Shown in pieces: positions 206-35,298 of a DNA stretch of 37,793 nt. The position numbers were made by a program, and so were the translations under genes. Every line of letters starts with the position of its first letter. The stretch's first letter is position 1. The DNA is from a virus, in UHGV virus genome UHGV-0272092. One strand, 5' to 3'. Below the pieces are notes generated by a model, which ran no database searches, was not told where the DNA came from, and worked only from the letters and a program-made list of their open reading frames with translations.

Positions 206-344
206 GTGCGCTGCTAAGGCACTGGAGCAAATGGTCAGGATGGTACTTATTCCTGGCCTCTGTTTCAGCATGGCTTTATCTGCTGGCATTAATTTTCAGA
301 GAGGGTTGGATTAAGTGAGAAAGTTAAGCCGACTTGAAAAATAT

Positions 345-614
345 CACATGAATAAGGTTTCAATGCGCAGTCCGTCAAAGATTGTCGCCGTTACTCCTGC
401 GGCGATAGAGATCGAAAAACGCGCGATTGAAAGAGAGAAAAAAGGGCAATTCCGCATTGCCGCTCACCTTTGGCTTCAGTGTATGGATGTTGCTTCTGGT
501 GATGTTGAACGTGCAAGGATCGCGGTTCGCAGGGACCAATGTATCACAAAAGGTAACGGCCTTCGCCGTGGCGACTATAGCGGCATAGGATGTTGTGGGG
601 TGGTTTATGACTAA
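345..614 (+). CDS. PerC-like small regulatory protein (start uncertain; ORF opens at 315 with GTG)
   Basis: Segment FRIAAHLWLQCMDVASGDVERARIAVRRDQCI resembles the PerC family core as I recall it. Stop overlaps the methyltransferase start (ATGA-type coupling). Confidence 0.4.
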   Translation, partial: HMNKVSMRSPSKIVAVTPAAIEIEKRAIEREKKGQFRIAAHLWLQCMDVASGDVERARIAVRRDQCITKGNGLRRGDYSGIGCCGVVYD

Positions 615-4129: not shown

Positions 4130-4427
4130 GTTTAGACCTCGATACTTTAAAAATTTGAACGACGTTACCGCGCGTTTTAATAACCGCAGCCAGCATGACA
4201 GCGTTGATAATGACCTCAGATAAATCCACAGCCATTGGCGTACGTAACCAGATTGCATAGGCGACTCGAACAGGAATACTGGCCGCAGCAACAATCAGGA
4301 AATAAGCAAGCCATCCTCCCCACCTTCGATGTTGAGAGCCGTTACGCCGGAATGTGACAACGCGAATTGCTATGCCAGTGCAAATAACTGCATTGGTGAT
4401 AAGCAAAAAAAACTCATGCGTTACCAT
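4119..4427 (-). CDS. holin-like small membrane protein (three predicted TM segments, charged C-terminus)
   Basis: Hydrophobic segments [43 protein letters not shown]; sits immediately upstream of the endolysin. Confidence 0.5.
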
Positions 4428-4818
4428 CGTCTTTTCTCCCCGGAATTAACTCGCGTGGATTATCGGAACGGTGATAGAGCCATATACCAATACGCACAGC
4501 GACAATTGCTGACACGAATGCGCCTGCAGAGAAAACAATCCCTTTTTCAAAAGAGTCCTGCGTGATGGTAGGGATCAGGCTGGCTATGCCGATAAGAATT
4601 GATGCTGCTGGTTTGTAAAAGAGAAGGCCGCAAAGAAAGCTGAGCATCGACAGGAGCACCCGGCGACGGATGGGGTACTCTACTGCAGAGGTAACAAAAA
4701 TTACCGCCCCAGCCAAAGCCCCTAAAGCAACCTCCGGAGGGGCACCTGCAATAACCGCAGCAAGAGAACTAAAACTAAGCAACTGATTTAATTGCTCACT
4801 TGTTACTTGAGCAGACAT
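4414..4818 (-). CDS. holin-like membrane protein (3-4 TM segments, charged C-terminal tail)
   Basis: Several hydrophobic helices and C-terminal [19 protein letters not shown]; first gene of the lysis cassette. Confidence 0.5.
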   Translation of the reverse strand: MSAQVTSEQLNQLLSFSSLAAVIAGAPPEVALGALAGAVIFVTSAVEYPIRRRVLLSMLSFLCGLLFYKPAASILIGIASLIPTITQDSFEKGIVFSAGAFVSAIVAVRIGIWLYHRSDNPRELIPGRKDDGNA

Positions 4819-4878
4819 ACTTTCTCCTGTTTACTATCTATAAGCCAGTCAATTATTGATGACTAAACCCGCATAGTA

Positions 4879-4889
4879 AACCATATATG
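4879..4889 (-). promoter_or_regulatory. conserved element AACCATATATG (late-promoter-like), about 60 bp upstream of the lysis cassette
   Basis: One mismatch to AACCACATATG at 8309 and 24915, each at a similar distance upstream of a minus-strand operon start. Confidence 0.4.
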
Positions 4890-5099
4890 AATCATTATTG
4901 TTCCATATCATATATCTCAATAAAAGTACTAATGATTTTACAGAACGAGCCAGCAGAGTGGGGGCAGTTGTACAGGAACCATAGACTTAATTTTGTATTT
5001 AATAATGCTATGGTGTAATAAACCTGAACATGTATTTAAAATACGTACTGATTCATGATAGAATTCAAAGATAACTTTTCACAAACTCCGTTTTTGATA

Positions 5100-5126
5100 C
5101 CCGCAAAATATTGCGGGCTTTTTTTT
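5100..5126 (+). terminator. plus-strand intrinsic-terminator-like hairpin overlapping the tailspike stop codon
   Basis: CCCGCAA-AATA-TTGCGGG followed by C and eight T. No annotated plus-strand gene lies upstream. Confidence 0.5.
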
Positions 5127-8100
5127 AACGTTCTTCCAGAGACTGAATCCGCTCTTTTATCTTATCCATTTCTCTGCGCTGCCATGCTGCCTCGATATAG
5201 AATAAGAGATCAGGTCTGACCCCCCATCTAGATCCTGCTGGCGTTATTTCAACGCGCTCAATGATGTCTTCCATTACCATCACTGGATTATCATCCTCAT
5301 CAACAATGATGCTCCCGTCATTATCAGTCAGCGGCATTTCCCTTTGGCCAGTAATGACGTCATCATATACTGCGGGATAATCGTCATAGCAAAGAAAGGC
5401 ATAGCGGCATGTTGTGCTTTCTTCTTCCATGAGTCCGTGAGAAATAAGAACATCACGAAGTTGCTGCGCGATTACACCATGATGTATCCTCGCCCCTTCT
5501 TCCCCCTTTATAGCGACAGCGTTCAGCCATTTATAAGCGATATACCTGACGTCACCCCAGGCATCCAGCAATGCTTCGTCAGGAGAGACCGGCTCTGTCT
5601 TTAATGTTCCGTCACTGGTAACCACAGGATTGGAGCCAAGATAAACTGTCGAGAACCTGTTTCCCGGACCACCAAGAGCATTTACATTATCAAGATAAGG
5701 TTTAACATCTCCGTTCTCAAAAAGATGTTCGAGTGCGTTATATACCGCGCGACGTGGAGTACTGCTTCCGGAACCATGCAACGTTATCATTGCACCATCT
5801 GCTGAAGACGTTATTTCACCGCCGCTAACGATTAATCTCTGAGCGGTAACATCATCAGACGGTACTTTCTTCGCAATAATGGCGTAATTACCCTCAAGTT
5901 TGACTTCCGCGCGAACTTGTCCTGATGTACCTGCATGGACAGTCAGTGACTGGACGGCAACATCATCTGTGAAATCAACGGGTACAGGAACCGTCCTCAC
6001 GCCTGACGTCGACATAAAAGTAGGAAGCGTTCTGTTAGGAGTGGCTCCGTAGACAAAATCCCTTGAAACAAATTCTTCCTGTTTAATTTTCACCCTGAAA
6101 CAATACAAATCAGCCGGGTGACCATCGTGAACATAAGGATATTTTCTGTTGTTATCCCCTATGCTCCATGGGTTTAGAAAGTCTTCCCCACCGAAAATGT
6201 AGTACAGCCAGTTGTCTTTGATACAAACTGAACCAACACCAACTGCAGAGTTAACTATTCCGCCCTGATAAATCTGATCAGTAACATTAACCCACTCTAC
6301 ATTATCCAGACTCCACTCATTGACGTTAACTCTGGTCATAAATGTTCTTGGATAATTTCCTGCATAACGGTTATCAGGTTCTCCTCCTTCCCACTCACCA
6401 AATGCGCGCTCACTGCCAAAAATAATCAGCTCATCGCCAACTTTGGCAAAAGGAAGGTTTGAGTGATGAACATTATTTGGGAAGCGAAGAGAATTCCATG
6501 ATGTACCTAAATCAGAGCTTCTGTGCAATGAACTACCGGGTTGAGTACTTAATGTCCCCCTGGTCGTCAGATACAGAATGCCATCATAATATTTTACACA
6601 TGGCTCAGATGCATTCGCCTCATATTCTGCAGGTATGCGTCTGCGAACAAAGCTACCAGGAGAACCGAAAGCATCAGAGAAATAGAGTATCCCAAGCTCG
6701 CGTGGACCAATATCACCATTATGGTAGCCAACAGCAAAACTGTTATCGCTAATCGTCGCAAAACTGTGAATCTCAGTAACAGGAGTGCTTCCGTCAACAA
6801 AAGAAGGAATAGTTCCAAGACTGGTTTTTCTCCATGGTGACGAGTGAAATGATGTACCAAAACTCCAGTATCTACCCTCGTTATTCTGATCCACATCCTG
6901 GGTATTTTGCGTCGTAACTGTAAAAGTATTTTTATCAATAACAGTAGTCACCGTCATATTCCCGGTAACACCTGTAACACCAGAGTTTGAGAAGTTGACA
7001 AAATCACCAGCAAATAATCCGTGATCAGTAATGCGAATATAAGCGACTTGCTGATTTGCTGCTTTCGTTATACCACCATAAGCGCGAAGGCTGCGACTCA
7101 TTGGGCGATCCCACAACTCTGCAACCTGCAGTTTATTTCCGCTCACGGTCCGCGTCTCAATTACAGCAAAAAGGCGATTTCTGACAACCCCCATACTCAT
7201 GCAGTGATAGTTAACTGTGGGATAGTTTTCATGTAAATCTGTAAGCCATTCCGGCGTTGTCCAGGTCTTCCCGTCATCTCCTGAGCGAACCCATGCAACA
7301 TGGAGGTTATTTACACCATGGCGGTCTCCAGCCATAAAAGGCGCATAGATGACATTGTCATATACAAACGTTTTATCCTGCGTCCAGGCGTTGTACCACG
7401 GTGTATCTGTAATTTTAAATAACTCTCCCTGGATAAAATCTTCAGAAGCATAAAAAAGAGGCTGGCCCGGTATTCTCTCAAATAAAAAACGAGCATTTTT
7501 AAATCGACTGACATCCGGAAGAGTTGATACTTTAAAAGTAAGCCCTAATCCGTCAATTTTATAACCTGGAGATGAGGCTTCAAGGCACGCGCTTATTGCA
7601 GTGGAATCGTCATTTATACCATCACCAACAGCTCCAAAATCTTTGGGGCTAATAGCATCACGCATTTTATCCTGGAACGTTCGGTACACAGCCCCAGAAC
7701 CATACTGAATAAACCAACCAAAACCACCAACAACCCCGGCGATTGCAGCATCGACATAATTACGCATTGAGCGATTATTTACAGCGTCCTGCTCAAATGA
7801 TGGATCTGCAAGGTTAGAAATTTTGTTTTGCTTTGCATCGTAATATTTTGCAAGCAAAGATGGTTTCATCAATGCACGTCTGAACCACCCAAAACATTGC
7901 TGGATCAGCATCGTCAGGTAGTCAAAGGCATCTTCATGCACTTCGGGGAAAAATTTTCCCTGATTGCGAAGGTCTGTCTCCTGCACTACATCAAGCACAC
8001 GATCTATCGTAATTCGCCATCCAGTAGCAAGCGGAGACGGAAGAACCACAGAACCGCCACTATAAGTGCCCGCCCCAGTTACCGTATAACCGGTATCCAG

Positions 8101-8244
8101 AACCAATTCTGTTACGTTTCCGTTCAGGTCAGACACCTGAACAACCAGGTCTGATTTTCTGAAAATTCGAAAAGTATACGGAAACGATGTCGTAACGCCG
8201 TTACCGGTGTATTCGTTGTGGTCAACTTCGGTTGAGACCGTCAT
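5125..8244 (-). CDS. tailspike / tail fibre protein (1039 aa), probable polysaccharide depolymerase with C-terminal chaperone-like domain
   Basis: Size, position as last virion gene, and a C-terminal segment (GVIAQQLRDVL...) reminiscent of intramolecular chaperone domains of tailspikes. Confidence 0.7.
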   Translation of the reverse strand: MTVSTEVDHNEYTGNGVTTSFPYTFRIFRKSDLVVQVSDLNGNVTELVLDTGYTVTGAGTYSGGSVVLPSPLATGWRITIDRVLDVVQETDLRNQGKFFPEVHEDAFDYLTMLIQQCFGWFRRALMKPSLLAKYYDAKQNKISNLADPSFEQDAVNNRSMRNYVDAAIAGVVGGFGWFIQYGSGAVYRTFQDKMRDAISPKDFGAVGDGINDDSTAISACLEASSPGYKIDGLGLTFKVSTLPDVSRFKNARFLFERIPGQPLFYASEDFIQGELFKITDTPWYNAWTQDKTFVYDNVIYAPFMAGDRHGVNNLHVAWVRSGDDGKTWTTPEWLTDLHENYPTVNYHCMSMGVVRNRLFAVIETRTVSGNKLQVAELWDRPMSRSLRAYGGITKAANQQVAYIRITDHGLFAGDFVNFSNSGVTGVTGNMTVTTVIDKNTFTVTTQNTQDVDQNNEGRYWSFGTSFHSSPWRKTSLGTIPSFVDGSTPVTEIHSFATISDNSFAVGYHNGDIGPRELGILYFSDAFGSPGSFVRRRIPAEYEANASEPCVKYYDGILYLTTRGTLSTQPGSSLHRSSDLGTSWNSLRFPNNVHHSNLPFAKVGDELIIFGSERAFGEWEGGEPDNRYAGNYPRTFMTRVNVNEWSLDNVEWVNVTDQIYQGGIVNSAVGVGSVCIKDNWLYYIFGGEDFLNPWSIGDNNRKYPYVHDGHPADLYCFRVKIKQEEFVSRDFVYGATPNRTLPTFMSTSGVRTVPVPVDFTDDVAVQSLTVHAGTSGQVRAEVKLEGNYAIIAKKVPSDDVTAQRLIVSGGEITSSADGAMITLHGSGSSTPRRAVYNALEHLFENGDVKPYLDNVNALGGPGNRFSTVYLGSNPVVTSDGTLKTEPVSPDEALLDAWGDVRYIAYKWLNAVAIKGEEGARIHHGVIAQQLRDVLISHGLMEEESTTCRYAFLCYDDYPAVYDDVITGQREMPLTDNDGSIIVDEDDNPVMVMEDIIERVEITPAGSRWGVRPDLLFYIEAAWQRREMDKIKERIQSLEER

Positions 8245-8308
8245 GTTAAATCTCCAGATAGTCGCAGCACCCGTTGCGCCGCATATCTGGTTATTCTATT
8301 ACCTGGAA

Positions 8309-8319
8309 AACCACATATG
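8309..8319 (-). promoter_or_regulatory. conserved element AACCACATATG upstream of the tailspike gene
   Basis: Identical 11-mer at 24915-24925; preceded by ATTACC-N5 in both copies. Confidence 0.45.
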
Positions 8320-8348
8320 GATAGAAAGGATGTAAATACGAATAGATA

Positions 8349-8363
8349 TTACCTTTCAGGTAA
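8349..8363. promoter_or_regulatory. operator-like palindrome TTACCTTTCAGGTAA
   Basis: Perfect 15-bp palindrome, identical to the copy at 24967-24981. Confidence 0.55.
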
Positions 8364-8400
8364 TTTGCAAAACGTGCTGGATAGCAAACAAATTATTTGA

Positions 8401-8420
8401 TACTGTATAAATATACAGTT
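8401..8420. promoter_or_regulatory. LexA (SOS) box TACTGTATAAATATACAGTT
   Basis: CTGT-N8-ACAG with AT-rich centre, 18 of 20 matches to consensus TACTGTATATATATACAGTA. It occupies the spacer between a possible -35 TTGATA (8397-8402) and a weak -10. Confidence 0.7.
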
Positions 8421-8439
8421 ATTGCATGGAGAAGATAAG

Positions 8440-8697
8440 ATGCAGCAGTATCACTATCCACTGGAAGACGGATTTACCGAAAGGATTCACACGCCGGGAG
8501 GCGTCAGGTCACTGGTGGAGGGATCGCACTTGATGAAATTACTCCGGGATCTCGATAAGGATGGATTTAATGTCGATGGCCCACTTGCCGAACTGACTGC
8601 ACTGATTAACTACGTCACCAGCTCACAGATGTCTATGCAGGATCTGCAAACACATCTCGACTATTGTGCCGAACAATTACGAAAACAAACCCGGTAA
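8440..8697 (+). CDS. small LexA-controlled protein (85 aa), candidate antirepressor
   Basis: ATG 8440 with RBS GGAG 8 nt upstream. Plus-strand gene embedded between minus-strand tail genes, directly downstream of the LexA box. Confidence 0.55.
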   Translation: MQQYHYPLEDGFTERIHTPGGVRSLVEGSHLMKLLRDLDKDGFNVDGPLAELTALINYVTSSQMSMQDLQTHLDYCAEQLRKQTR

Positions 8698-8704
8698 ATT
8701 TAAA

Positions 8705-8733
8705 GGCCGCGAAAGCGGCCTGTGACATGTCAC
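8705..8733 (+). promoter_or_regulatory. GNRA-loop hairpin GGCCGC-GAAA-GCGGCC followed by palindrome GTGACATGTCAC (8722-8733)
   Basis: Read from sequence immediately after the stop of the 8440-8697 gene; no T-run follows. Confidence 0.5.
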
Positions 8734-8890
8734 GCTCACGTTATGACAAGCCTATGTACCCTGCTACACCAGATAATATCATAATAACTGCAACAGCAAA
8801 TTCGCCATCGTCAATGATACATTTACGGTTCATAACGCCAAGTGCAACAAGCGCAAACACAACAAGAATAAAAGCAATCATTTCTCATCC

Positions 8891-11365
8891 TTATTGCGGA
8901 GTGACATCCTGTGGTCGCCACCAGTATGTCTGGTTAAACTCTTTCTTCGAACGTTGCTCCATTTTACGCAAATAACCTGGTGAAAAATACTCCTGCATCT
9001 GGTTAAAGATCATGTGATCGAGAGCCGCCTTCAAGTACCAGAGATTCGCACCTGGCATCAGACCTTTCCCCAGCTTAACCAGATCACCACCAGTCTGCTC
9101 ACTCTTCCCTTCCACAGCATTTAACGGTATGCCCTGAGCAATCTTCACTACGTCATCAACCAGACCAGCTACCGGGCCAAGCATCGACGCCAGCGCGCCG
9201 CTTCCGTACCTAGTGTGATCTGACAATAAAAAGTCACCGTAAAGGCCAAGACCACCACCTTTCAGTAGAGCACCAAGCCAAAATTTAGCAGCATCTTCTC
9301 CTGTCATCTCGCGAGGATTACGACCAGACGCAAGGTCGTTAAGTTGCTGCGACAAAGCGCCAAGAATGGTCGTACTGGCAATAAACGTCGCAATATATGC
9401 CGCACGCCCACCAGCAGACGGCATACCCATAGCGCGTGACCAGTGACGCATAACCACCGAGATAGGGAACGATTTAAACAGGAAAACACTTCTCGTTAAT
9501 TCACCTTTCCATGTTCCACGCTGAATACCAGAACCGGTTATCAGTTGCTCACGTGCTCCCGGTGTAATAACAGCCATATCAACTTCTTCAGTTACGGCAC
9601 CGAGCAGTTTACGCATTGCCTCAAATTTCACGCGTTCAGGCTCACCAAGATGTTTAACTGCTGAATCAGGGATACGCATAATGCTTTCCGGTGTCAGCAT
9701 CGTATTATTACCGTTCCCCCAGTCCTCCTGTTTCGCCAGCTTCCATACGCTCCAGTCTGTGTCAGTAATCCCTTTGCTTTTCAGGATACGAAAATCAGAG
9801 TCATCGAGGCTACGAAGGTCTGGTGTACGTGACACTACTTCTCCCAGGCTTCCCATCATGGTTACGCCATAGGCGCGCTTGTGCGCATCTGACCATGCTG
9901 TAAGCCCACTGGCACGCATTACCGCCGTTGCCGCCCAACGAGACACTGACGGCCCCATATTATCCATCGCCCAGCGGTTAACGCTGCCAAGTAGAGATTC
10001 CATCGCCAGACCAGCGCGGCGCGCCCGCGCAAGTTCTGTACGGTTCGTTGGGTCCATAGCTTCAAGCTGGTTGCGGAATAACTGGTTCATTGGAAGGTTG
10101 GTAACCTTCGCAGACAGATACATGGTTCCAAGATCAGAGAACGATGACAGCAACGCGGATCCGAGTCTGCTGGCAACCAGCCAGTTGCGGATATTGTCAG
10201 ACCATCGCGCGATGTGCGGATTCGCTACAGGCTGTGTCTTTCCGGAAATAAAGTTGTACAGATTCTCTGTGTTGTTCGCCAGCCGCTCGACTTTACCGGT
10301 TTTACTCGGGTTAGCTGTTGCCGTTTCTGCCTTCACCTGATCAAGAAGAGAGCGGAAAACATGATCGGGGTTTGGGCCATATGTTTCCACCAGTGCAATA
10401 TCTTTACTGATACCTTCCAGGTGACCGACCATGATTTCCCATAGAGAGCGATCGCCATAAAGTTGCTGATATTGCAGATAGGAATCTGCATCTTTGAAAT
10501 GTATCTGTCGTGATGCATTACCACGGTTAGCACGTGCGCCGGAAATTCGCATTCCGGTATCAGTAAGCTTATTCAGCCCACCAGTAGCGATCGTGTTATA
10601 AGCCTCTCCAAGAAATGAAGACAACTCGGCATCGTTCATCAGTTGTCCATCGGCTCGGATATAATATTTGCGATCCAGCTTACCTATAACATCGCTAACC
10701 CACTTATCCTTTGATACTGCCCCAACCTTTTCCATAGAATGATGTTGAGGGATCCCCCAGTTTTCGAGATAGCCAATGTCCCCACCAGCATCATTAAACC
10801 GGCGGCGCAGCAGCTCTGTAACTTCTCTCCACGCCTTAGCACCGTTTCTTGCTTTAGCATTGCCAGTATTTTGCCCCCGCATTTCATATACCAGGTCACG
10901 TACGCCCGCTTCATCTTCAAACAGACCAAAAAAGCGAGGATCAACTGCTTCGAATGCCTCCTGCAATTGACTCAATGCATAATCACGGGTGGCTTTTGTT
11001 CTGGATTCAACAGAGAGGAAATTAGATTTACCGTCTGCATTAAAAGCTATAGTACGGTTAAGAGCGCCAAGTTTCCCATCAGCCCCTTGATAGCTATTGA
11101 TAAATTTATCCAATCTCTGACGCGCGGCTATAGTGAGAGCCACACGACGTTTCTTTAATGCCGCTTCTCGCTGTAATTCTTCAGATGCCAATTGTGCTGC
11201 TCGATATAGCCGCTCTGATTCGGAAAGTTGTCTCCACGACATCGGGTCATCACGAGCAATGGAGCGCATATTTCGATAAATGCGGTCTTCAATGTTCTGT
11301 ATTTCTCGCGCCGTTAACGTGCGCTGCGCCGCCTGCTGGACCGCTTGTATACATTCCTGTCTCAT
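8891..11365 (-). CDS. internal virion / ejection protein (824 aa)
   Basis: Large protein in the block between tail tube and tailspike, matching the T7 gp15/gp16 position. Confidence 0.5.
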   Translation of the reverse strand: MRQECIQAVQQAAQRTLTAREIQNIEDRIYRNMRSIARDDPMSWRQLSESERLYRAAQLASEELQREAALKKRRVALTIAARQRLDKFINSYQGADGKLGALNRTIAFNADGKSNFLSVESRTKATRDYALSQLQEAFEAVDPRFFGLFEDEAGVRDLVYEMRGQNTGNAKARNGAKAWREVTELLRRRFNDAGGDIGYLENWGIPQHHSMEKVGAVSKDKWVSDVIGKLDRKYYIRADGQLMNDAELSSFLGEAYNTIATGGLNKLTDTGMRISGARANRGNASRQIHFKDADSYLQYQQLYGDRSLWEIMVGHLEGISKDIALVETYGPNPDHVFRSLLDQVKAETATANPSKTGKVERLANNTENLYNFISGKTQPVANPHIARWSDNIRNWLVASRLGSALLSSFSDLGTMYLSAKVTNLPMNQLFRNQLEAMDPTNRTELARARRAGLAMESLLGSVNRWAMDNMGPSVSRWAATAVMRASGLTAWSDAHKRAYGVTMMGSLGEVVSRTPDLRSLDDSDFRILKSKGITDTDWSVWKLAKQEDWGNGNNTMLTPESIMRIPDSAVKHLGEPERVKFEAMRKLLGAVTEEVDMAVITPGAREQLITGSGIQRGTWKGELTRSVFLFKSFPISVVMRHWSRAMGMPSAGGRAAYIATFIASTTILGALSQQLNDLASGRNPREMTGEDAAKFWLGALLKGGGLGLYGDFLLSDHTRYGSGALASMLGPVAGLVDDVVKIAQGIPLNAVEGKSEQTGGDLVKLGKGLMPGANLWYLKAALDHMIFNQMQEYFSPGYLRKMEQRSKKEFNQTYWWRPQDVTPQ

Positions 11366-19778: not shown

Positions 19779-20104
19779 TCACCTCCGTTACCGTACAGAG
19801 TTTCAGCCGCTGATTTTTCTACATCCCCGGAAACAGGAGCGATCGCCATATCAGTGATCTGCAGATCGGCGCTGCGATTAACACCATCGTCAGTTTCTTT
19901 GGCAGACAGGCCTCGAATAACAGCCTTTGCAGTTATCATCACTTCTGTTCCGACGCCCTGAGGTTGCGCCTTCAGCTTATTCAATGTGTCGTTATTAAGA
20001 GTGATGCACAGCCCCCACGGGTATTCATCGCGAGTTCTGGTTTCTCCGCTCTCATCCTGGTAGCTGTCAGTGCCGGTTTTGAGGTTTACGAGTTCCATAT
20101 ACAC
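19775..20104 (-). CDS. hypothetical virion protein (109 aa)
   Basis: ORF in operon context with overlapping stop/start; start may be the internal ATG (MELVNLK). Confidence 0.4.
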   Translation of the reverse strand: MYMELVNLKTGTDSYQDESGETRTRDEYPWGLCITLNNDTLNKLKAQPQGVGTEVMITAKAVIRGLSAKETDDGVNRSADLQITDMAIAPVSGDVEKSAAETLYGNGGE

Positions 20105-24669: not shown

Positions 24670-24876
24670 TTACTGACCAAGCAGCGTTTTACCGCTGGTA
24701 TTAGCGGTTGATGTGTCGCCCTGAGAACCGGTAAGCAGCGTAGAACTACGACCAGCAGCAGCGCGACGGCGACGAGTTTCTTCGTCGCGGGCATCAACAA
24801 CGGCGGCATCCTGCTCCTGTGGTGCTGCCTGAACTTCTGGTGTTGCAGGCACTGATGGTGAGCTACCCATGCACAT
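24670..24876 (-). CDS. small protein upstream of portal (68 aa)
   Basis: Start context GGAGTCATTGATATG is near-identical to the portal start context GGAGTCATTGAAATG. Confidence 0.45.
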   Translation of the reverse strand: MCMGSSPSVPATPEVQAAPQEQDAAVVDARDEETRRRRAAAGRSSTLLTGSQGDTSTANTSGKTLLGQ

Positions 24877-24914
24877 ATCAATGACTCCGTACGCAATTAA
24901 ATTATTACCAATTT

Positions 24915-24925
24915 AACCACATATG
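24915..24925 (-). promoter_or_regulatory. conserved element AACCACATATG upstream of the head operon
   Basis: Identical to 8309-8319; preceded by ATTACC-N5. Confidence 0.45.
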
Positions 24926-24966
24926 ATTTATTTATCGTAGGTAGTTGACATTTAACGCACAAATTA

Positions 24967-24981
24967 TTACCTTTCAGGTAA
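24967..24981. promoter_or_regulatory. operator-like palindrome TTACCTTTCAGGTAA
   Basis: Identical to the copy at 8349-8363. Confidence 0.55.
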
Positions 24982-25303
24982 CCAAAGAGTTCATTCCGGT
25001 TACTAACCTGACTGGCTTGTCGTTAAATTGAACAGGTGGAGTGAGCTTTTATTTTGAGCAGTACGGCGTATGGCACATGCGCCGATAGCGGTCTGGATAC
25101 GTTTAAGGGGCACCCTCCCTTGCTCGGGCAAACGAACCAGGTAGCCGGAATGTGCAAGTCGAGCGGTTTTATTCCGCGCACGGGGATTCACCATCCCGGC
25201 GATTCGGTGTGACGCCTCGGAAGAGACGAGGGTACAACGATGAGAGCATTTATGGAGCCGCGACAAAGTGTGGCGCCTTAACAGGCTAAGTGCTCTCAGC
25301 GTT

Positions 25304-25380
25304 GTGGCATTAGCTCAGTTGGACAGAGCAACCGCCTTCTAAGCGGTTGGTCGCAGGTTCGAATCCTGCATGCCACGCCA
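25304..25380 (+). tRNA. tRNA-Arg (anticodon UCU), 77 nt including CCA
   Basis: Hand-folded cloverleaf: acceptor GTGGCAT/ATGCCAC, D-stem GCTC/GAGC, anticodon stem ACCGC/GCGGT with loop CTTCTAA, T-stem GCAGG/CCTGC with loop TTCGAAT, discriminator G, CCA. Confidence 0.85.
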
Positions 25381-25568: not shown

Positions 25569-25580
25569 AAGGTGAAAATC

Positions 25581-25913
25581 ATGAAAGAGAAGACTGCAGC
25601 TGAGCGCTATGCCGCAGCTATCAATGCCGCGATGGCGATTGTAAACCTGCGTGAAGAGATTAAAGATCTCCTTGCAATTATCCATAACAACCTGACATGT
25701 ACAGAGTTGCTTGGCGGTCAGTACAACGGTGAGGCGGTGAAGGAGGCATTTAAAAATGCCGAGGTAGGAATAATTCCAGCAAACTATGTCAAGGCTGAAT
25801 GTGTGCTCCTAAAGGCACGAGTGAGTCTGCATGAAGATCCTGGTAATCTCGGTCGAACTGCAATGCGTTACGTGATAGACGAGTCGAATGCCAAACACAA
25901 TCTACCGAAATAA
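25581..25913 (+). CDS. hypothetical protein (110 aa), plus-strand gene between terminase and portal
   Basis: ATG 25581 with RBS AAGGTGA; track ORF opens at GTG 25572. No family recognised. Confidence 0.55.
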   Translation: MKEKTAAERYAAAINAAMAIVNLREEIKDLLAIIHNNLTCTELLGGQYNGEAVKEAFKNAEVGIIPANYVKAECVLLKARVSLHEDPGNLGRTAMRYVIDESNAKHNLPK

Positions 25914-25916
25914 CAC

Positions 25917-25928
25917 CGTGACATGTCA
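25917..25928. promoter_or_regulatory. 12-bp palindrome GTGACATGTCAC (copy 2 of 3)
   Basis: Exact repeat of 8722-8733 and 28183-28194. Confidence 0.5.
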
Positions 25929-26003
25929 CAAACAGACAGCCTATGAGCTGGCTTTGTTTTATCCTCACCAGAGGATATCAACGACATTATCCCCACCAGC
26001 GGA

Positions 26004-27479: not shown

Positions 27480-28072
27480 TGATTACCATCCTGACGTTCT
27501 TTGAGTCGCTTCCTGGCTGCTGCTATGCGATCAGCAATTGTCACATTCACATTAACATCCAGACGTTCTTTGAACGCGTTGACATCAACATGCTTACCAA
27601 TCAGCTCAAGGTTCTTCACCTTGTCAGGCCATTTAATTTTTTTGAGGATTGTCTCTATCGAATCCTCGTTCATGTTCATGATGGTCGATGACAGATCAAA
27701 GCCACTAAGCGTAGTGCGCCAGATTTTCGGCCACTCACGGATTGGTTTAAGGCTCCCATCGTCGTTGAGGATGTCGATCACGTCCATCTGGTCGATCTCC
27801 ACCAGGCGCATGAGAACGTAATCAGCACTGACGCGCATTCGTTTGTTGCGCTCCTCCATCAACTCGGCAATCCGTTTTTGAATGCGTTCATCGCGCATCA
27901 TGACACTGGCTTTAACTGCCGCTGTATTTGGGGAGAATCCTGCGTTAATCGCTGCCTGAGTCTGGTTTTCAGGCGTTTTGATGTATGACTGGCAATAAGC
28001 CTCCTGCATTGCTGTTAGTGGCTTAAATTGCGTTGATTTGCGTTTATAGGTTTTAGGTTCAGCAGGCATCAT
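27476..28072 (-). CDS. terminase small subunit
   Basis: Position; start moved to MMPAEPK (ATG 28072, RBS GGTGG) because the upstream extension to 28150 contains a terminator hairpin and direct repeats. Confidence 0.65.
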   Translation of the reverse strand: MMPAEPKTYKRKSTQFKPLTAMQEAYCQSYIKTPENQTQAAINAGFSPNTAAVKASVMMRDERIQKRIAELMEERNKRMRVSADYVLMRLVEIDQMDVIDILNDDGSLKPIREWPKIWRTTLSGFDLSSTIMNMNEDSIETILKKIKWPDKVKNLELIGKHVDVNAFKERLDVNVNVTIADRIAAARKRLKERQDGNQ

Positions 28073-28081
28073 AACCACCGT

Positions 28082-28111
28082 GGTAATAGTTACCGTTGTG
28101 GTAATAGTACC
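28082..28111 (-). repeat. tandem direct repeat GGTAATAGT(T)ACC x2 directly upstream of the small terminase start
   Basis: GGTAATAGTTACC (28082-28094) and GGTAATAGTACC (28100-28111). Confidence 0.5.
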
Positions 28112-28182: not shown

Positions 28183-28194
28183 GTGACATGTCAC
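28183..28194. promoter_or_regulatory. 12-bp palindrome GTGACATGTCAC (copy 3 of 3), overlapping the stop of the 28191-28538 gene
   Basis: Exact repeat. Confidence 0.5.
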
Positions 28195-28538
28195 ACTATT
28201 AATTTCGTTTCATGCCAGCCTTTAGTCACCCAGCATTGCGAGTCACCATTACACGGGCATGAATTAACTGGAACTCTCTCGCCGCACTTACCGCAACATT
28301 TTCTGCTGATCGATTTTATACGCCCGCGCACGCGTGCATCATCCTGGCGGATCAGTAACGCGATGTACTCGGCCATTTCATAGGGATCGCGACCAGGGCG
28401 CCGGGCGGCGCAGTTCCGCGCCAGCATTTCCTGCTCCTGCTTATCCAGCACCAGTTCAATTTTGCGCTCACCGGCGGCGGACTGCCGAGCGCGCTGCGCG
28501 GCTTTGCGTTCTGCGGGGGATTTAGCCACGAATCGCAC
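28191..28538 (-). CDS. Cys-rich small protein (about 111-115 aa), candidate late-gene regulator
   Basis: C-terminal Cys cluster CCGKCG...CPCNGDSQC; last gene before the terminase-proximal terminator. Track start is GTG; a second GTG with RBS GGAG is at 28526. Confidence 0.45.
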   Translation of the reverse strand: MRFVAKSPAERKAAQRARQSAAGERKIELVLDKQEQEMLARNCAARRPGRDPYEMAEYIALLIRQDDARVRGRIKSISRKCCGKCGERVPVNSCPCNGDSQCWVTKGWHETKLIV

Positions 28539-32160: not shown

Positions 32161-32237
32161 TTACCTCTAAGGTAATTGAAAACCATATAAGACACGAAAT
32201 CAATAGAGTTTAGAATATTTTGTTACCTTGTAGGTAA
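32161..32237. promoter_or_regulatory. pair of operator-like palindromes TTACCTCTAAGGTAA (32161-32175) and TTACCTTGTAGGTAA (32223-32237)
   Basis: Two perfect-armed palindromes 62 bp apart between P and the DUF1064 gene. Confidence 0.55.
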
Positions 32238-33051: not shown

Positions 33052-33853
33052 CCCACACCCCTTCTATCCAGTCAGTGTTATTCCAGTCAAGCTCATCGCT
33101 TTTCCCGGCATTTTTTGATTTTCCCCTGATATGATTTACGTGCCTGGCGAATTTTTGTTCCCACTGAACCTGCGTGAACACTTTGCCCTCAGCCATCCAG
33201 TAATCCCGGAATGCAGCAAGTTCAGCAGGTGTAAATTCCGGTTCCGGCAGGGCCGTTCCCCACAGCGCAGCACGCCGCCGAAAATCTGGCGACGGTAGCC
33301 AGCCATCTGTCATCGGAAATTTCCCGATGGGTTCACTCAGGCCATCCAGAAATTCAGGTTCTGCCACCTGCAACGGCGTACTGTTCGCTTCACTGGTCGG
33401 AGCACCCTCGCGCACGTGCGCTATGTGTGGGGTTTTATATATATCTTCCTCTTCCTCTTCCTCTGGTAACTCCTTTTGTAACGCTGTTGGCGTTACTTTT
33501 TGCGTTACTCGTTTTCTATGCTCTGCCACTCTTCTATTCGTAAGTGCACGTTTTTTCGATGATTCTCCATTATGTCGCTCAAAGTTTGGAAGAATTAGTT
33601 TGCCGTCATGATAAGCAAGCCATCCGACGCTAATGAGGGCGTCAGCAAATCCTGTAATAAAAGCGAGTCTATCAAGTACTCCTTTTGTAACGCTGCCAGC
33701 GTTACCGTCTATTGTTTGCTGGTCAGCCCATGCCCATATACGAACCAGCTTTCCAAGAACAGCATCTGGATCAATACCCAGAATTTCTGCTATCTGAAAA
33801 ATTTCAGGTTTATCAGGAGTGATAACTTCAACCTTAATCCAGCTGCTTGCCAT
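33023..33853 (-). CDS. replication initiation protein (O-like replisome organiser)
   Basis: Position immediately upstream of P with overlap; start set at MASSW (RBS GAGGGG). Confidence 0.55.
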   Translation of the reverse strand: MASSWIKVEVITPDKPEIFQIAEILGIDPDAVLGKLVRIWAWADQQTIDGNAGSVTKGVLDRLAFITGFADALISVGWLAYHDGKLILPNFERHNGESSKKRALTNRRVAEHRKRVTQKVTPTALQKELPEEEEEEDIYKTPHIAHVREGAPTSEANSTPLQVAEPEFLDGLSEPIGKFPMTDGWLPSPDFRRRAALWGTALPEPEFTPAELAAFRDYWMAEGKVFTQVQWEQKFARHVNHIRGKSKNAGKSDELDWNNTDWIEGVWDEINSRTSQ

Positions 33854-34046: not shown

Positions 34047-34124
34047 TTTTTCCGCCCCTTTTTGTTATTGATATTGACTATTTTGCACAATTGGAAAATT
34101 TGATCAACCAGATTTGGTTTTTTA

Positions 34125-34139
34125 TTACCCTTAAGGTGC
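34125..34139. promoter_or_regulatory. operator-like site TTACCCTTAAGGTGC downstream of the cro terminator
   Basis: Imperfect member of the TTACC-N5-GGTAA family. Confidence 0.4.
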
Positions 34140-34194: not shown

Positions 34195-34425
34195 TCATGA
34201 GTAGAAGAAGTATGCCAGTTCTGCTTTTGAGCGCAGCCATTGTCTTGTTTTACAGGCTTTAAAAAGCCCATTCATCAATACTTTACCTGGCATTTTGCGC
34301 TTGCCTGTTAAGTGAGTCTGGATATAGTGACTCGTCGTTCCGGCTTCCTGTGCGAAGGCTTCACGCTCATCCGGAGTAAGTGCAAGCCAGTGCTTTTTGA
34401 AATCGAAATGTCCGTTATCGCTCAT
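34195..34425 (-). CDS. Cro/CII-like HTH regulator (76 aa)
   Basis: First gene of the minus-strand early operon next to the operator cluster; helix-turn-helix-like segment AQEAGTTSHYIQTHLTG. Confidence 0.5.
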   Translation of the reverse strand: MSDNGHFDFKKHWLALTPDEREAFAQEAGTTSHYIQTHLTGKRKMPGKVLMNGLFKACKTRQWLRSKAELAYFFYS

Positions 34426-34461: not shown

Positions 34462-34523
34462 TCACCCATAAGGTAACAAAAATCAAGGATAGTTACCTAT
34501 GAGGTGCATTTACCTGTTGGGTA
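34462..34523. promoter_or_regulatory. OR-like operator cluster with three sites: TCACCCATAAGGTAA (34462-34476), TTACCTATGAGGTGC (34493-34507), TTACCTGTTGGGTAA (34509-34523)
   Basis: Three 15-bp sites in the divergent intergenic region between the Cro-like and repressor genes. Confidence 0.65.
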
Positions 34524-34579
34524 ATATTGCTTTAAATTGAATCATCTACTGATTCATATATGAGGCGATTTTCCAGAAA

Positions 34580-35164
34580 ATGAAAAGTATCCAGGACGTC
34601 CGCAGGCAAAATCTCAACGACTTGATCGACCGTGAATTCAATGGTGTTCAGACGCGGATGGCAGAAAAACTTGGAACTCAGGCAAATCTGGTAAACCGCT
34701 GGGCTCTTGGCAAGAAGGTTATCGGCGACCAGGTTGCACGAAAAATTGAAGCTGCCGCCAATAAACCCCGTAACTGGCTTGATATTGATCGTTCGCTTTC
34801 TCAGGAGGGTTTTCAGCCTGTCGGCCCGAGCGATATAGGTCAGCTGGCGGCTCACAACCTGGAACGCTGGATGAGCGAAAGCCGCGACCTTTCAACACAG
34901 GGAAAACTTCACCGCGCATCCGGCGTCGCCCAGGTGACAATCAGCCGCCTGTTAAACAATGAGGTCAGCGTTTCCATTTCCACCCTGGAGAATGTTGCAT
35001 CCGCATTCGGGCGTCACGGATATGAACTACTGATTCACCCGCACGACCCTGCGACTATCAACTATGACCGCTCACGCTACGCATTGTTACCCGAAACCGA
35101 GAAAGCAAAGATCGAAAGTTACATTGAATTTGTCATCAACCAGAACGAAAAAAGCAAACAATAA
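34580..35164 (+). CDS. prophage repressor, tandem HTH domains, no S24 peptidase domain
   Basis: Two XRE-type HTH-like segments (TRMAEKLGTQANLVNRWALGKK and ASGVAQVTISRLLNNEVSVS); no Ala-Gly / Ser-Lys autocleavage signature. Confidence 0.65.
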   Translation: MKSIQDVRRQNLNDLIDREFNGVQTRMAEKLGTQANLVNRWALGKKVIGDQVARKIEAAANKPRNWLDIDRSLSQEGFQPVGPSDIGQLAAHNLERWMSESRDLSTQGKLHRASGVAQVTISRLLNNEVSVSISTLENVASAFGRHGYELLIHPHDPATINYDRSRYALLPETEKAKIESYIEFVINQNEKSKQ

Positions 35165-35221: not shown

Positions 35222-35298
35222 TTACCTTACGGGTAATTTTTTTAACTCATATCTATTGACACCAAACCAAATAAGCATAATTATTACCCCAACGGTAA
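35222..35298 (+). promoter_or_regulatory. OL-like region: operators TTACCTTACGGGTAA (35222-35236) and TTACCCCAACGGTAA (35284-35298) flanking a sigma70-like promoter (-35 TTGACA 35256-35261)
   Basis: TTGACA followed 14-16 nt later by CATAAT/ATAATT; the second operator overlaps the start region. Confidence 0.6.

Follow-up and report, generated by a model that had tools for sequence, protein, structure and literature searches.

The 15-mer TTACCTTTCAGGTAA at 8349-8363, located between the ant and tailspike promoters, is probably an operator of the prophage repressor Rep: in the lysogen it would hold the tailspike promoter silent, and it may also have a secondary influence on the ant promoter. The site was studied in the window, by which is meant the whole stretch of DNA that was analysed (37,793 nucleotides, UHGV virus genome UHGV-0272092). 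This reading is based on membership in the operator motif family, the statistical excess of the motif, the conservation of its position, invariant spacing to promoter elements, and the presence of both rep and ant in the genome.

At the level of sequence, the 15-mer at 8349 has every testable feature of the Rep operator family of epsilon15 and SPC32H and is treated here as a putative operator. These features are the inverted repeat (A)TTACC-N5-GGTAA(T), a cognate rep in the same genome, the occurrence of the motif at the promoters adjoining rep, and positional orthology with repressor sites annotated in epsilon15.

Genome context and the operator family

Sequence comparison assigns the window to a temperate epsilon15/phiV10-like podophage (Uetakevirus), which is not lambdoid. 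The nearest BLAST matches of positions 7000-10000 are the Escherichia phages phiv142-3, phiV10, ZX5 and PAS61 (97-99% identity), and the Salmonella phages SPN1S, SPC32H and epsilon15 match this segment at ~79% identity. The late genes are on the minus strand and run from terS (~28069) through terL, gp3 (24876-24670), the portal gene and the structural genes down to 8891, followed by the tailspike gene (8244-5125) and by the lysis genes from 4818 downwards. The gp3-like gene (24670-24876, minus strand; phrog_831, orthologue of epsilon15 gp3) is the first gene of the structural operon; the tailspike gene (5125-8244, minus strand) is an ORF of 1039 aa whose counterparts in relatives are named tailspike or tail fibre. 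With a terminator (8721-8704, minus strand) dividing it from the structural operon, the tailspike gene must have a promoter to itself or be reached by read-through. Outside the late region, the early-left operon encodes a homologue of PerC-family transcriptional activators (315-614, plus strand; PF06069, E = 6e-7; phrog_868), and the replication-initiator gene holds two 28-nt direct repeats (33469-33496 and 33678-33705, 89% identical), each with a hairpin GTAACGC...GCGTTAC inside it, which may be origin or iteron elements.

The rep gene (34580-35164, plus strand) encodes a prophage repressor with two HTH domains (SPC32H Rep 5d50_A, E = 3.5e-42; Pfam HTH_3), of which the N-terminal helix NLVNRW is common to all relatives, epsilon15, SPC32H, Tyrion and BUCT711 among them. 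The neighbouring cro-like gene (34195-34425) encodes a 76-aa Cro-like repressor. The small antirepressor gene ant (8440-8697, plus strand) was identified by its match to the SPC32H Ant chain 5d50_E (E = 4e-47). The LexA box CTGTATAAATATACAG (8403-8418, plus strand), part of a block conserved in relatives, overlaps the -10 of the candidate ant promoter, which would consist of -35 TGGATA (8378-8383) and -10 TACTGT (8401-8406) on the plus strand, the assignment of both hexamers being provisional. Since Rep and Ant are orthologues of the SPC32H pair, the phage is taken to use the known Rep/Ant/LexA antirepression switch, which was reportedly worked out for SPC32H by Kim & Ryu 2013 and Kim et al. 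2016 (PDB 5D50, 5D4Z). Downstream of ant, the segment 8698-8890 was set against phiv142-3 (L001) 4353-5991; a second antirepressor, of the Bro-N type, and small ORFs stand at this place in phiv142-3, phiV10 and Tyrion but are missing from the window, and in those three phages the extra genes are flanked by additional Rep-type operators.

TTACCTTTCAGGTAA is an inverted repeat of the form 6+3+6, with 6-bp arms TTACCT/AGGTAA on both sides of an asymmetric TTC centre. The earlier note had reported an identical 15-mer at 24967, and this is correct: the second copy, at 24967-24981, upstream of gp3 and the portal/structural operon, is an exact match, and the identity of the two copies even reaches 17 nt (TATTACCTTTCAGGTAA). 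The description of the site as a perfect palindrome has to be amended, as the reverse complement (TTACCTGAAAGGTAA) differs from it at three central positions. Two other statements of the note agree with our data, namely that the half-sites are those of the OR/OL operators (the arms are identical to those of the sites around the repressor gene, and the site has the top score with a matrix built from immunity-region sites) and that the site lies about 100 bp upstream of the tailspike start beside a LexA-controlled divergent gene (the near edge of the operator is 105 nt upstream of the tailspike ATG, and the LexA box is 40 nt from the operator). TTACCTTTCAGGTAA itself does not fit the LexA-box pattern CTGT-N8-ACAG, the true LexA box being the separate site at 8403-8418.

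The motif scan proposed in the note as a check against chance gave a clear excess. With at most one mismatch allowed, TTACC-N5-GGTAA has 11 sites in the window, 8 of them exact and 3 with one mismatch, where 0.66 would be expected, and the count of 11 was not reached in any shuffled sequence. All motif sites fall in non-coding gaps, which make up less than 10% of the genome. With a position weight matrix (PWM) trained on immunity-region sites only, from the window and three relatives, the 8349 site ranked first in the window (25.1 bits) and the 24967 site seventh (21.0 bits). Ten sites of the window scored at least 17 bits, the next score being 12.7, and 13 sites scored at least 10 bits, against 0.44 expected in simulated sequences. 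That the 8349 and 24967 sites have the same 5-nt centre is unremarkable, since a set of 10 sites would be expected to give ~0.2 such pairs. A duplication origin of the two copies was also considered and was ruled out by their flanks, which are unrelated.

Further members of the family were found at early promoters and before terS. Two operators lie between rep and the cro-like gene (34462-34476 and 34510-34524), the first of them overlapping a promoter-like site TTGTTA-17-TATTAT. Another pair (35222-35236 and 35284-35298) brackets the early-left promoter TTGACA-17-AATTAT, and a third pair, present in all relatives, flanks the promoter of the resolvase-like gene (32161-32175 and 32223-32237). 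In the last two pairs the sites are exactly 62 bp apart, start to start (35222/35284 and 32161/32223), and the pairs would therefore fit one Rep tetramer holding both sites; this spacing was found in nearly every genome examined, one pair of BUCT711 being at 63 bp. The operator immediately upstream of terS (28090-28104) overlaps an extended -10 TGnTACTAT and is the orthologue of the epsilon15 'repressor' feature 12-27, and a weak second site near it was returned by the motif/PWM scan (28072-28086). Two weaker operator-like sites, both with a GGTGC arm, were noted at 34493-34507 (11.6 bits), where it forms a weak third site between the two rep-cro operators, and at 34125-34139 (12.7 bits), downstream of the cro-like gene. 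The one-mismatch variant ATACCTTTAAGGTAA upstream of int (2746-2760) is an uncertain member of the family: its GGTAT arm carries a mismatch that all relatives have kept, a larger inverted repeat (GACGGTAT...ATACCGTC) encloses it, and the epsilon15 record places Int and RNase III sites at the corresponding position upstream of int. This operator-like site may not be a Rep site.

Upstream regions of the late genes

A full operator was found between ant and the tailspike gene in 14/14 related genomes, with fixed arms and a variable centre. The 14 genomes comprise 6 phages and 8 prophages from 8 species, the prophages being taken from an Ant-alignment search with one genome per species (hosts: two Citrobacter species, and one species each of Superficieibacter, Pseudocitrobacter, Scandinavium, Kluyvera, Pseudescherichia and Klebsiella). 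The operator set of the window as a whole recurs in epsilon15, SPC32H, Tyrion, TL-2011b, BUCT711, phiV10 and phiv142-3. No relative with a differing Rep specificity was found among the 6 phages and 8 prophages, all of which share the half-site and the recognition helix; TL-2011b, which had been considered as a lambdoid hybrid with another repressor, carries the same Rep.

Variation at shorter distance was followed by a search of IMG/VR with Ant, which gave 80 nearly identical loci, informative for microdiversity only, and 45 distinct relatives were compared. The operator occurs in only three forms in these 45 near-identical relatives, the changes being A to G at 8358 (in the centre) or at position 14 (GGTAA to GGTGA). 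Position 14 is tolerant, because the mirror change TCACC is found in genuine operators beside rep. Within the region, the 45 relatives differ most in a 29-nt stretch adjoining the operator.

Read in the sense of the tailspike gene, all 14 genomes have the order operator - 27 nt - TTCATA - 12 nt - GGTAA - TAGAAT - leader - ATG. The candidate -10 TAGAAT (8293-8298, minus strand) is present in 13/14 genomes and reads TAAAAT in the other one. The candidate -35 (8316-8321, minus strand) overlaps the late box described below; it reads TTCATA in most relatives, TCCATA in the window and in TL-2011b, and TACATA and TGCATA in one genome each. An operator half-site GGTAA (8299-8303, minus strand) abuts the candidate -10, at a fixed distance from the full operator, in 14/14 genomes. 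This pentamer is not explained by sigma-70 contacts and, judged by its sequence, is an operator half-site; the pseudo-operator which it implies starts 50 bp from the start of the full operator. The block GGTAATAGAAT (with TAAAAT in L095) stands at an invariant distance from the operator in 14/14 genomes, the sequence between the two not being conserved, and it is invariant among the 45 near-identical relatives, in which the neighbouring 3 nt vary.

Neither late region of the window gave a promoter call in consensus scans, in the case of the tailspike region because the -35 of the window, TCCATA (3/6), is below the scan threshold. The sole promoter-like call in the ant-tailspike region of epsilon15 is TTCATA-17-TAGAAT. 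A dedicated tailspike promoter is predicted and is plausible. The leader of the tailspike gene (8245-8292, minus strand) is spanned by an inverted repeat CCAGATA...TATCTGG that overlaps the Shine-Dalgarno GGAG, with an apparent compensatory change in one relative (L091, CAGATG/CATCTG); the RNAalifold consensus of the leader is weak (3 pairs, -1.96 kcal/mol).

The late box CATATGTGGTT was found in sense orientation as exact copies in the tailspike module (8309-8319, minus strand; conserved in relatives) and in the gp3 module (24915-24925, minus strand), and the lysis genes are preceded by a copy with one mismatch, again in sense orientation (4879-4889, minus strand). In the tailspike module it is separated from the operator by a 29-nt spacer, the length of which is fixed in the 11 genomes in which the late box was found and the sequence of which is unconserved. 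In the form CATATNNGGTT the late box is a half-palindrome of AACCA-N4-TGGTT, with an inverted copy at 8282-8292 and a variant at 34106-34119, downstream of the cro-like gene. It may be the site of a dimeric regulator, or part of the -35 region.

The module upstream of gp3 consists of the operator, 41 nt, CATATGTGGTT, 5 nt, GGTAA and TAATTT. Its half-site (24905-24909, minus strand) implies a pseudo-operator 62 bp from the full operator, a spacing equal to that of the early operator pairs. The phages epsilon15, SPC32H, Tyrion and TL-2011b have kept the gp3 operator, always at 41 nt from the late box. On the opposite strand at the gp3 site, a perfect TTGACA (24944-24949, plus strand) stands at a fixed offset of 16 nt from the operator in 5/5 phages; the resulting TTGACA-N17-TACCTT (24944, plus strand) is below the scan threshold and would read through the operator towards tRNA-Arg and the ORF 25572-25913. 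The operator at 24967 may control both directions. The tRNA-Arg(UCU) gene (25304-25380, plus strand) is encoded on the strand opposite to the late genes, with two terminators behind it, and the 245 bp before it (25063-25307, plus strand) are ~83% identical to sequences of lambdoid phages (cdtI, mEp460).

Upstream of the lysis cassette of the window (4819-5124), motif and PWM scans found no Rep-type operator, a terminator and the late box being present; epsilon15, SPC32H and Tyrion, unlike the window, have an operator upstream of their lysis genes. The repressor sites are therefore not the whole story of late-gene silencing. As the lysis genes cannot be constitutive in a lysogen, the late-box promoters probably need more than the absence of Rep; they may need an activator, the Rep sites forming one control layer only. 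The three late-box regions do not conform to one common sigma-70 geometry, and in the lysis promoter the equivalent place holds no -10.

Apart from the late box, a perfect 12-bp palindrome GTGACATGTCAC occurs three times in the window (8722-8733, 25918-25929 and 28183-28194), and exact copies were found, two or three per genome, in epsilon15, SPC32H, Tyrion, TL-2011b and BUCT711. The copies of the window and of epsilon15, for which the context was checked, are located at the 3' ends of co-directional operons, beside terminators. Their positions are just past the last structural gene, just past terL, and at the end of the early-right operon, where the palindrome overlaps the stop codon of ORF 28191-28538.

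This ORF (28191-28538, minus strand) is the last gene of the early-right operon, directly before terS, and encodes a protein of 112-115 aa which, from its sequence, is a candidate late regulator. The protein has an Arg-rich N-terminus and conserved cysteines (CxxC...CPC...C), is at least 78% identical across Enterobacteriaceae and matches phrog_536 'transcriptional regulator'. No match to it was found in Pfam, NCBIfam or PDB sequences, profile searches did not find a Q-like family for this last early gene, and its homologues are annotated 'hypothetical' in 748/748 cases. The AlphaFold model is weak (pLDDT 66.8), and a Foldseek search with this model gave no match with E < 3. A ribbon-helix-helix pattern suspected in the protein found no support and was rejected.

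Proposed mode of action and alternative readings

In the lysogen, the Rep tetramer would bind the full operator, the centre of which lies ~70 bp before the start predicted for tailspike transcription. A lone full operator at about -70 is unable to repress by itself. We conjecture that the second pair of DNA-binding domains of Rep also contacts the GGTAA half-site (-17 to -13), and that simultaneous contact with the full site and the half-site would shut off the sigma-70-type tailspike promoter by clamping or looping it. On the gp3/structural operon the copy at 24967 would act likewise, and it would also overlap the -10 of the divergent promoter towards tRNA-Arg. Upon SOS induction, LexA would leave the ant promoter, Ant would dismantle the Rep tetramers, and all promoters held by Rep would open together. 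In this scheme we infer the binding of Rep, its contact with the half-site, the assignment of the promoter and of its transcription start, and the direction of the effect. The suggestion of the earlier note that the repressor controls late operons directly is reasonable and can be retained in part: the invariant spacing between operator and tailspike promoter strengthens it, and the lysis cassette, having no operator, sets a limit to it.

A rather unlikely alternative is that the Rep operator mainly targets the divergent LexA-controlled ant promoter, the effect on the tailspike gene being incidental; Rep bound upstream of the ant -35 would then be a second lock on antirepressor synthesis, or would boost it after LexA leaves. 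The end of the operator is indeed close to the candidate ant -35 TGGATA (14 nt in the window), but the gap between operator and candidate ant -35 (TGGATA or TGGAAG) varies by 3 nt among genomes (10 to 13 nt) and therefore offers no fixed helical face, whereas the tailspike elements stand at an unchanging distance from the operator in 14/14 genomes, and a position upstream of the -35 is poor for repression. Extra operators without a late gene in the vicinity also accompany other genes in the ant/moron cluster of phiv142-3 (L001; 4067 and 5082), Tyrion (21393), BUCT711 (17377) and TL-2011b (33333, 34385 and 34478); against this, the same module of operator, late box and half-site is found upstream of gp3, where there is no ant. 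The two roles are compatible with each other, and Rep may act on ant too, since the operator lies between divergent promoters and the ant/moron clusters of relatives carry extra operators.

It is improbable that the site is bound by something other than Rep, such as the 76-aa Cro-like repressor or IHF, or that it has an architectural role. Proteins of the Cro type usually share the operators of prophage repressors, and a Cro-like gene is present at 34195-34425; binding of Cro besides Rep would nevertheless leave the Rep-operator explanation intact, and the arms of the 15-mer match the sites of the rep-proximal promoters, the matrix built from which gives it the highest score. IHF sites overlap both late repressor sites in the epsilon15 record, but the part that is conserved is the symmetric TTACC/GGTAA arms and not an asymmetric consensus of the IHF type. 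Chance occurrence, or a functionless relic of duplication, can be practically dismissed: a shared 5-nt centre in two of ten sites would not be unlikely by chance, but the excess of sites over expectation (11 against 0.66), all of them non-coding, the unrelated flanks of the two copies, a position kept in 14/14 genomes amid divergent surroundings, and a polymorphism that spares the critical arm positions all argue against it.

Taking the Rep operator at the tailspike promoter as the preferred reading, a more general design can be proposed, which we hold to be possible though doubtful: the structural genes of epsilon15-like phages would be run without a late-activator cascade, the sigma-70-type promoters of the late operons being held directly by Rep in a 'promoter clamp', with a second control layer besides. 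If so, one Rep tetramer would bridge the operator at about -70 and the half-site fused to the -10, over an invariant length (50 or 62 bp) mirroring the 62-bp operator pairs of the early promoters. The late box AACCA-N4-TGGTT and the GTGACATGTCAC palindromes would then belong to the second control layer, possibly together with the Cys-rich protein encoded before terS. The design drawn from the comparison is testable: a full operator, an invariant spacer and then, at the -10 of the conserved promoter TTCATA-N17-TAGAAT, a half-site. The main point of interest lies in this clamp geometry and in the second layer (late box, GTGACATGTCAC palindromes and gp49-like protein). The operator finding adds little when taken alone, as the sites that it finds again in a phiV10-like phage of E. 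coli are already marked in the epsilon15 record; no paper was found that works out either the timing or the silencing of late genes in Uetakevirus. Phages of this group carry O-antigen-modifying genes and are used for the detection of Salmonella and E. coli O157, and promoters held by Rep are therefore of practical interest for engineering.

Relation to annotated sites and known systems

The GenBank record of epsilon15 (AY150271.2), to which the paper of Kropinski et al. 2007 is said to be linked, labels 'protein_bind: repressor / lysogeny' at 12-27 (before terS) and 2931-2947 (before gp3). It also labels a repressor site at 19895-19911, between gp19/ant and the tailspike gene, as well as three more beside rep and one before the resolvase gene. 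These annotated sites read ATTACC-N5-GGTAAT, and alignments of the upstream regions identified them as positional orthologues of the window sites; as far as could be verified, they are predictions. The operator finding is real but was already known, at least as a prediction, because orthologous repressor sites are annotated in this record. The window shares with epsilon15 the motif and its positions (tailspike gene, gp3, terS, around rep and before the resolvase gene), and differs from it in the central 5 nt and in the lysis operator, which is present in epsilon15 (though not annotated in AY150271.2) and missing from the window. A full-text literature search found no paper treating repressor sites in the late region of Uetakevirus, and the ZX5 paper speculates about no sites other than PL and PR.

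The likeness to SPC32H extends to orthologous Rep and Ant, a LexA box before ant, and the same operator set at the same places. The SPC32H work is cited in later papers (PMC9638917; PMC9986798) for the Rep tetramer, the Ant complex and the palindromic operators: according to these papers, Rep binds palindromic sites as a tetramer, which Ant takes apart.

The earlier note had further regarded operator-family sites at late promoters as lying outside the classic lambdoid scheme. The observation holds, as operators do stand before late genes; the frame does not, since the phage is no lambdoid and, on the sequences compared, terS, gp3 and the tailspike gene are normally preceded by operators in Uetakevirus. 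As the phage is epsilon15-like, a departure from the lambdoid scheme is to be expected. In lambda, operators are confined to the immunity region, and the late genes are under Q antitermination from a single late promoter. The window does not conform to operators of the lambda OR/OL type, the phage being a Uetakevirus with operators also before terS, gp3 and the tailspike gene.

The resemblance to the dispersed operators of P1, which the note had also put forward, is a loose one. In both cases a single repressor has many sites dispersed outside the immunity region. P1 operators are asymmetric 17-mers bound by C1, a protein unrelated to Rep. C1 does not act directly on the late promoters of P1; they depend on the activator Lpa, and it is the gene for Lpa that C1 targets. 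The window sites, on the contrary, are symmetric and located at the late promoters themselves; TTACCTTTCAGGTAA does not correspond to a C1 operator, given its symmetric arms and a repressor of the HTH_3 / SPC32H Rep type.

Mycobacteriophage L5 offers another likeness, in that sites for its repressor gp71 throughout the early and late regions help to silence the whole prophage. L5 stoperators are asymmetric 13-mers in transcribed regions, placed in one orientation, and block elongation. The window sites differ from them in being symmetric, upstream of promoters and phase-locked to promoter elements; TTACCTTTCAGGTAA, with symmetric arms and a fixed phase relative to the predicted promoter, upstream of which it lies, is not of the stoperator type. 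The comparisons with lambda, P1 C1 and L5 are analogies of dispersal only.

The immI region of P22 has a similar arrangement, in which an antirepressor gene with its own operator adjoins the tailspike gene (gene 9). In P22, immI is governed by the dedicated repressors Mnt and Arc, whereas the window uses LexA and the prophage repressor's own operator, with ant divergent from the tailspike gene.
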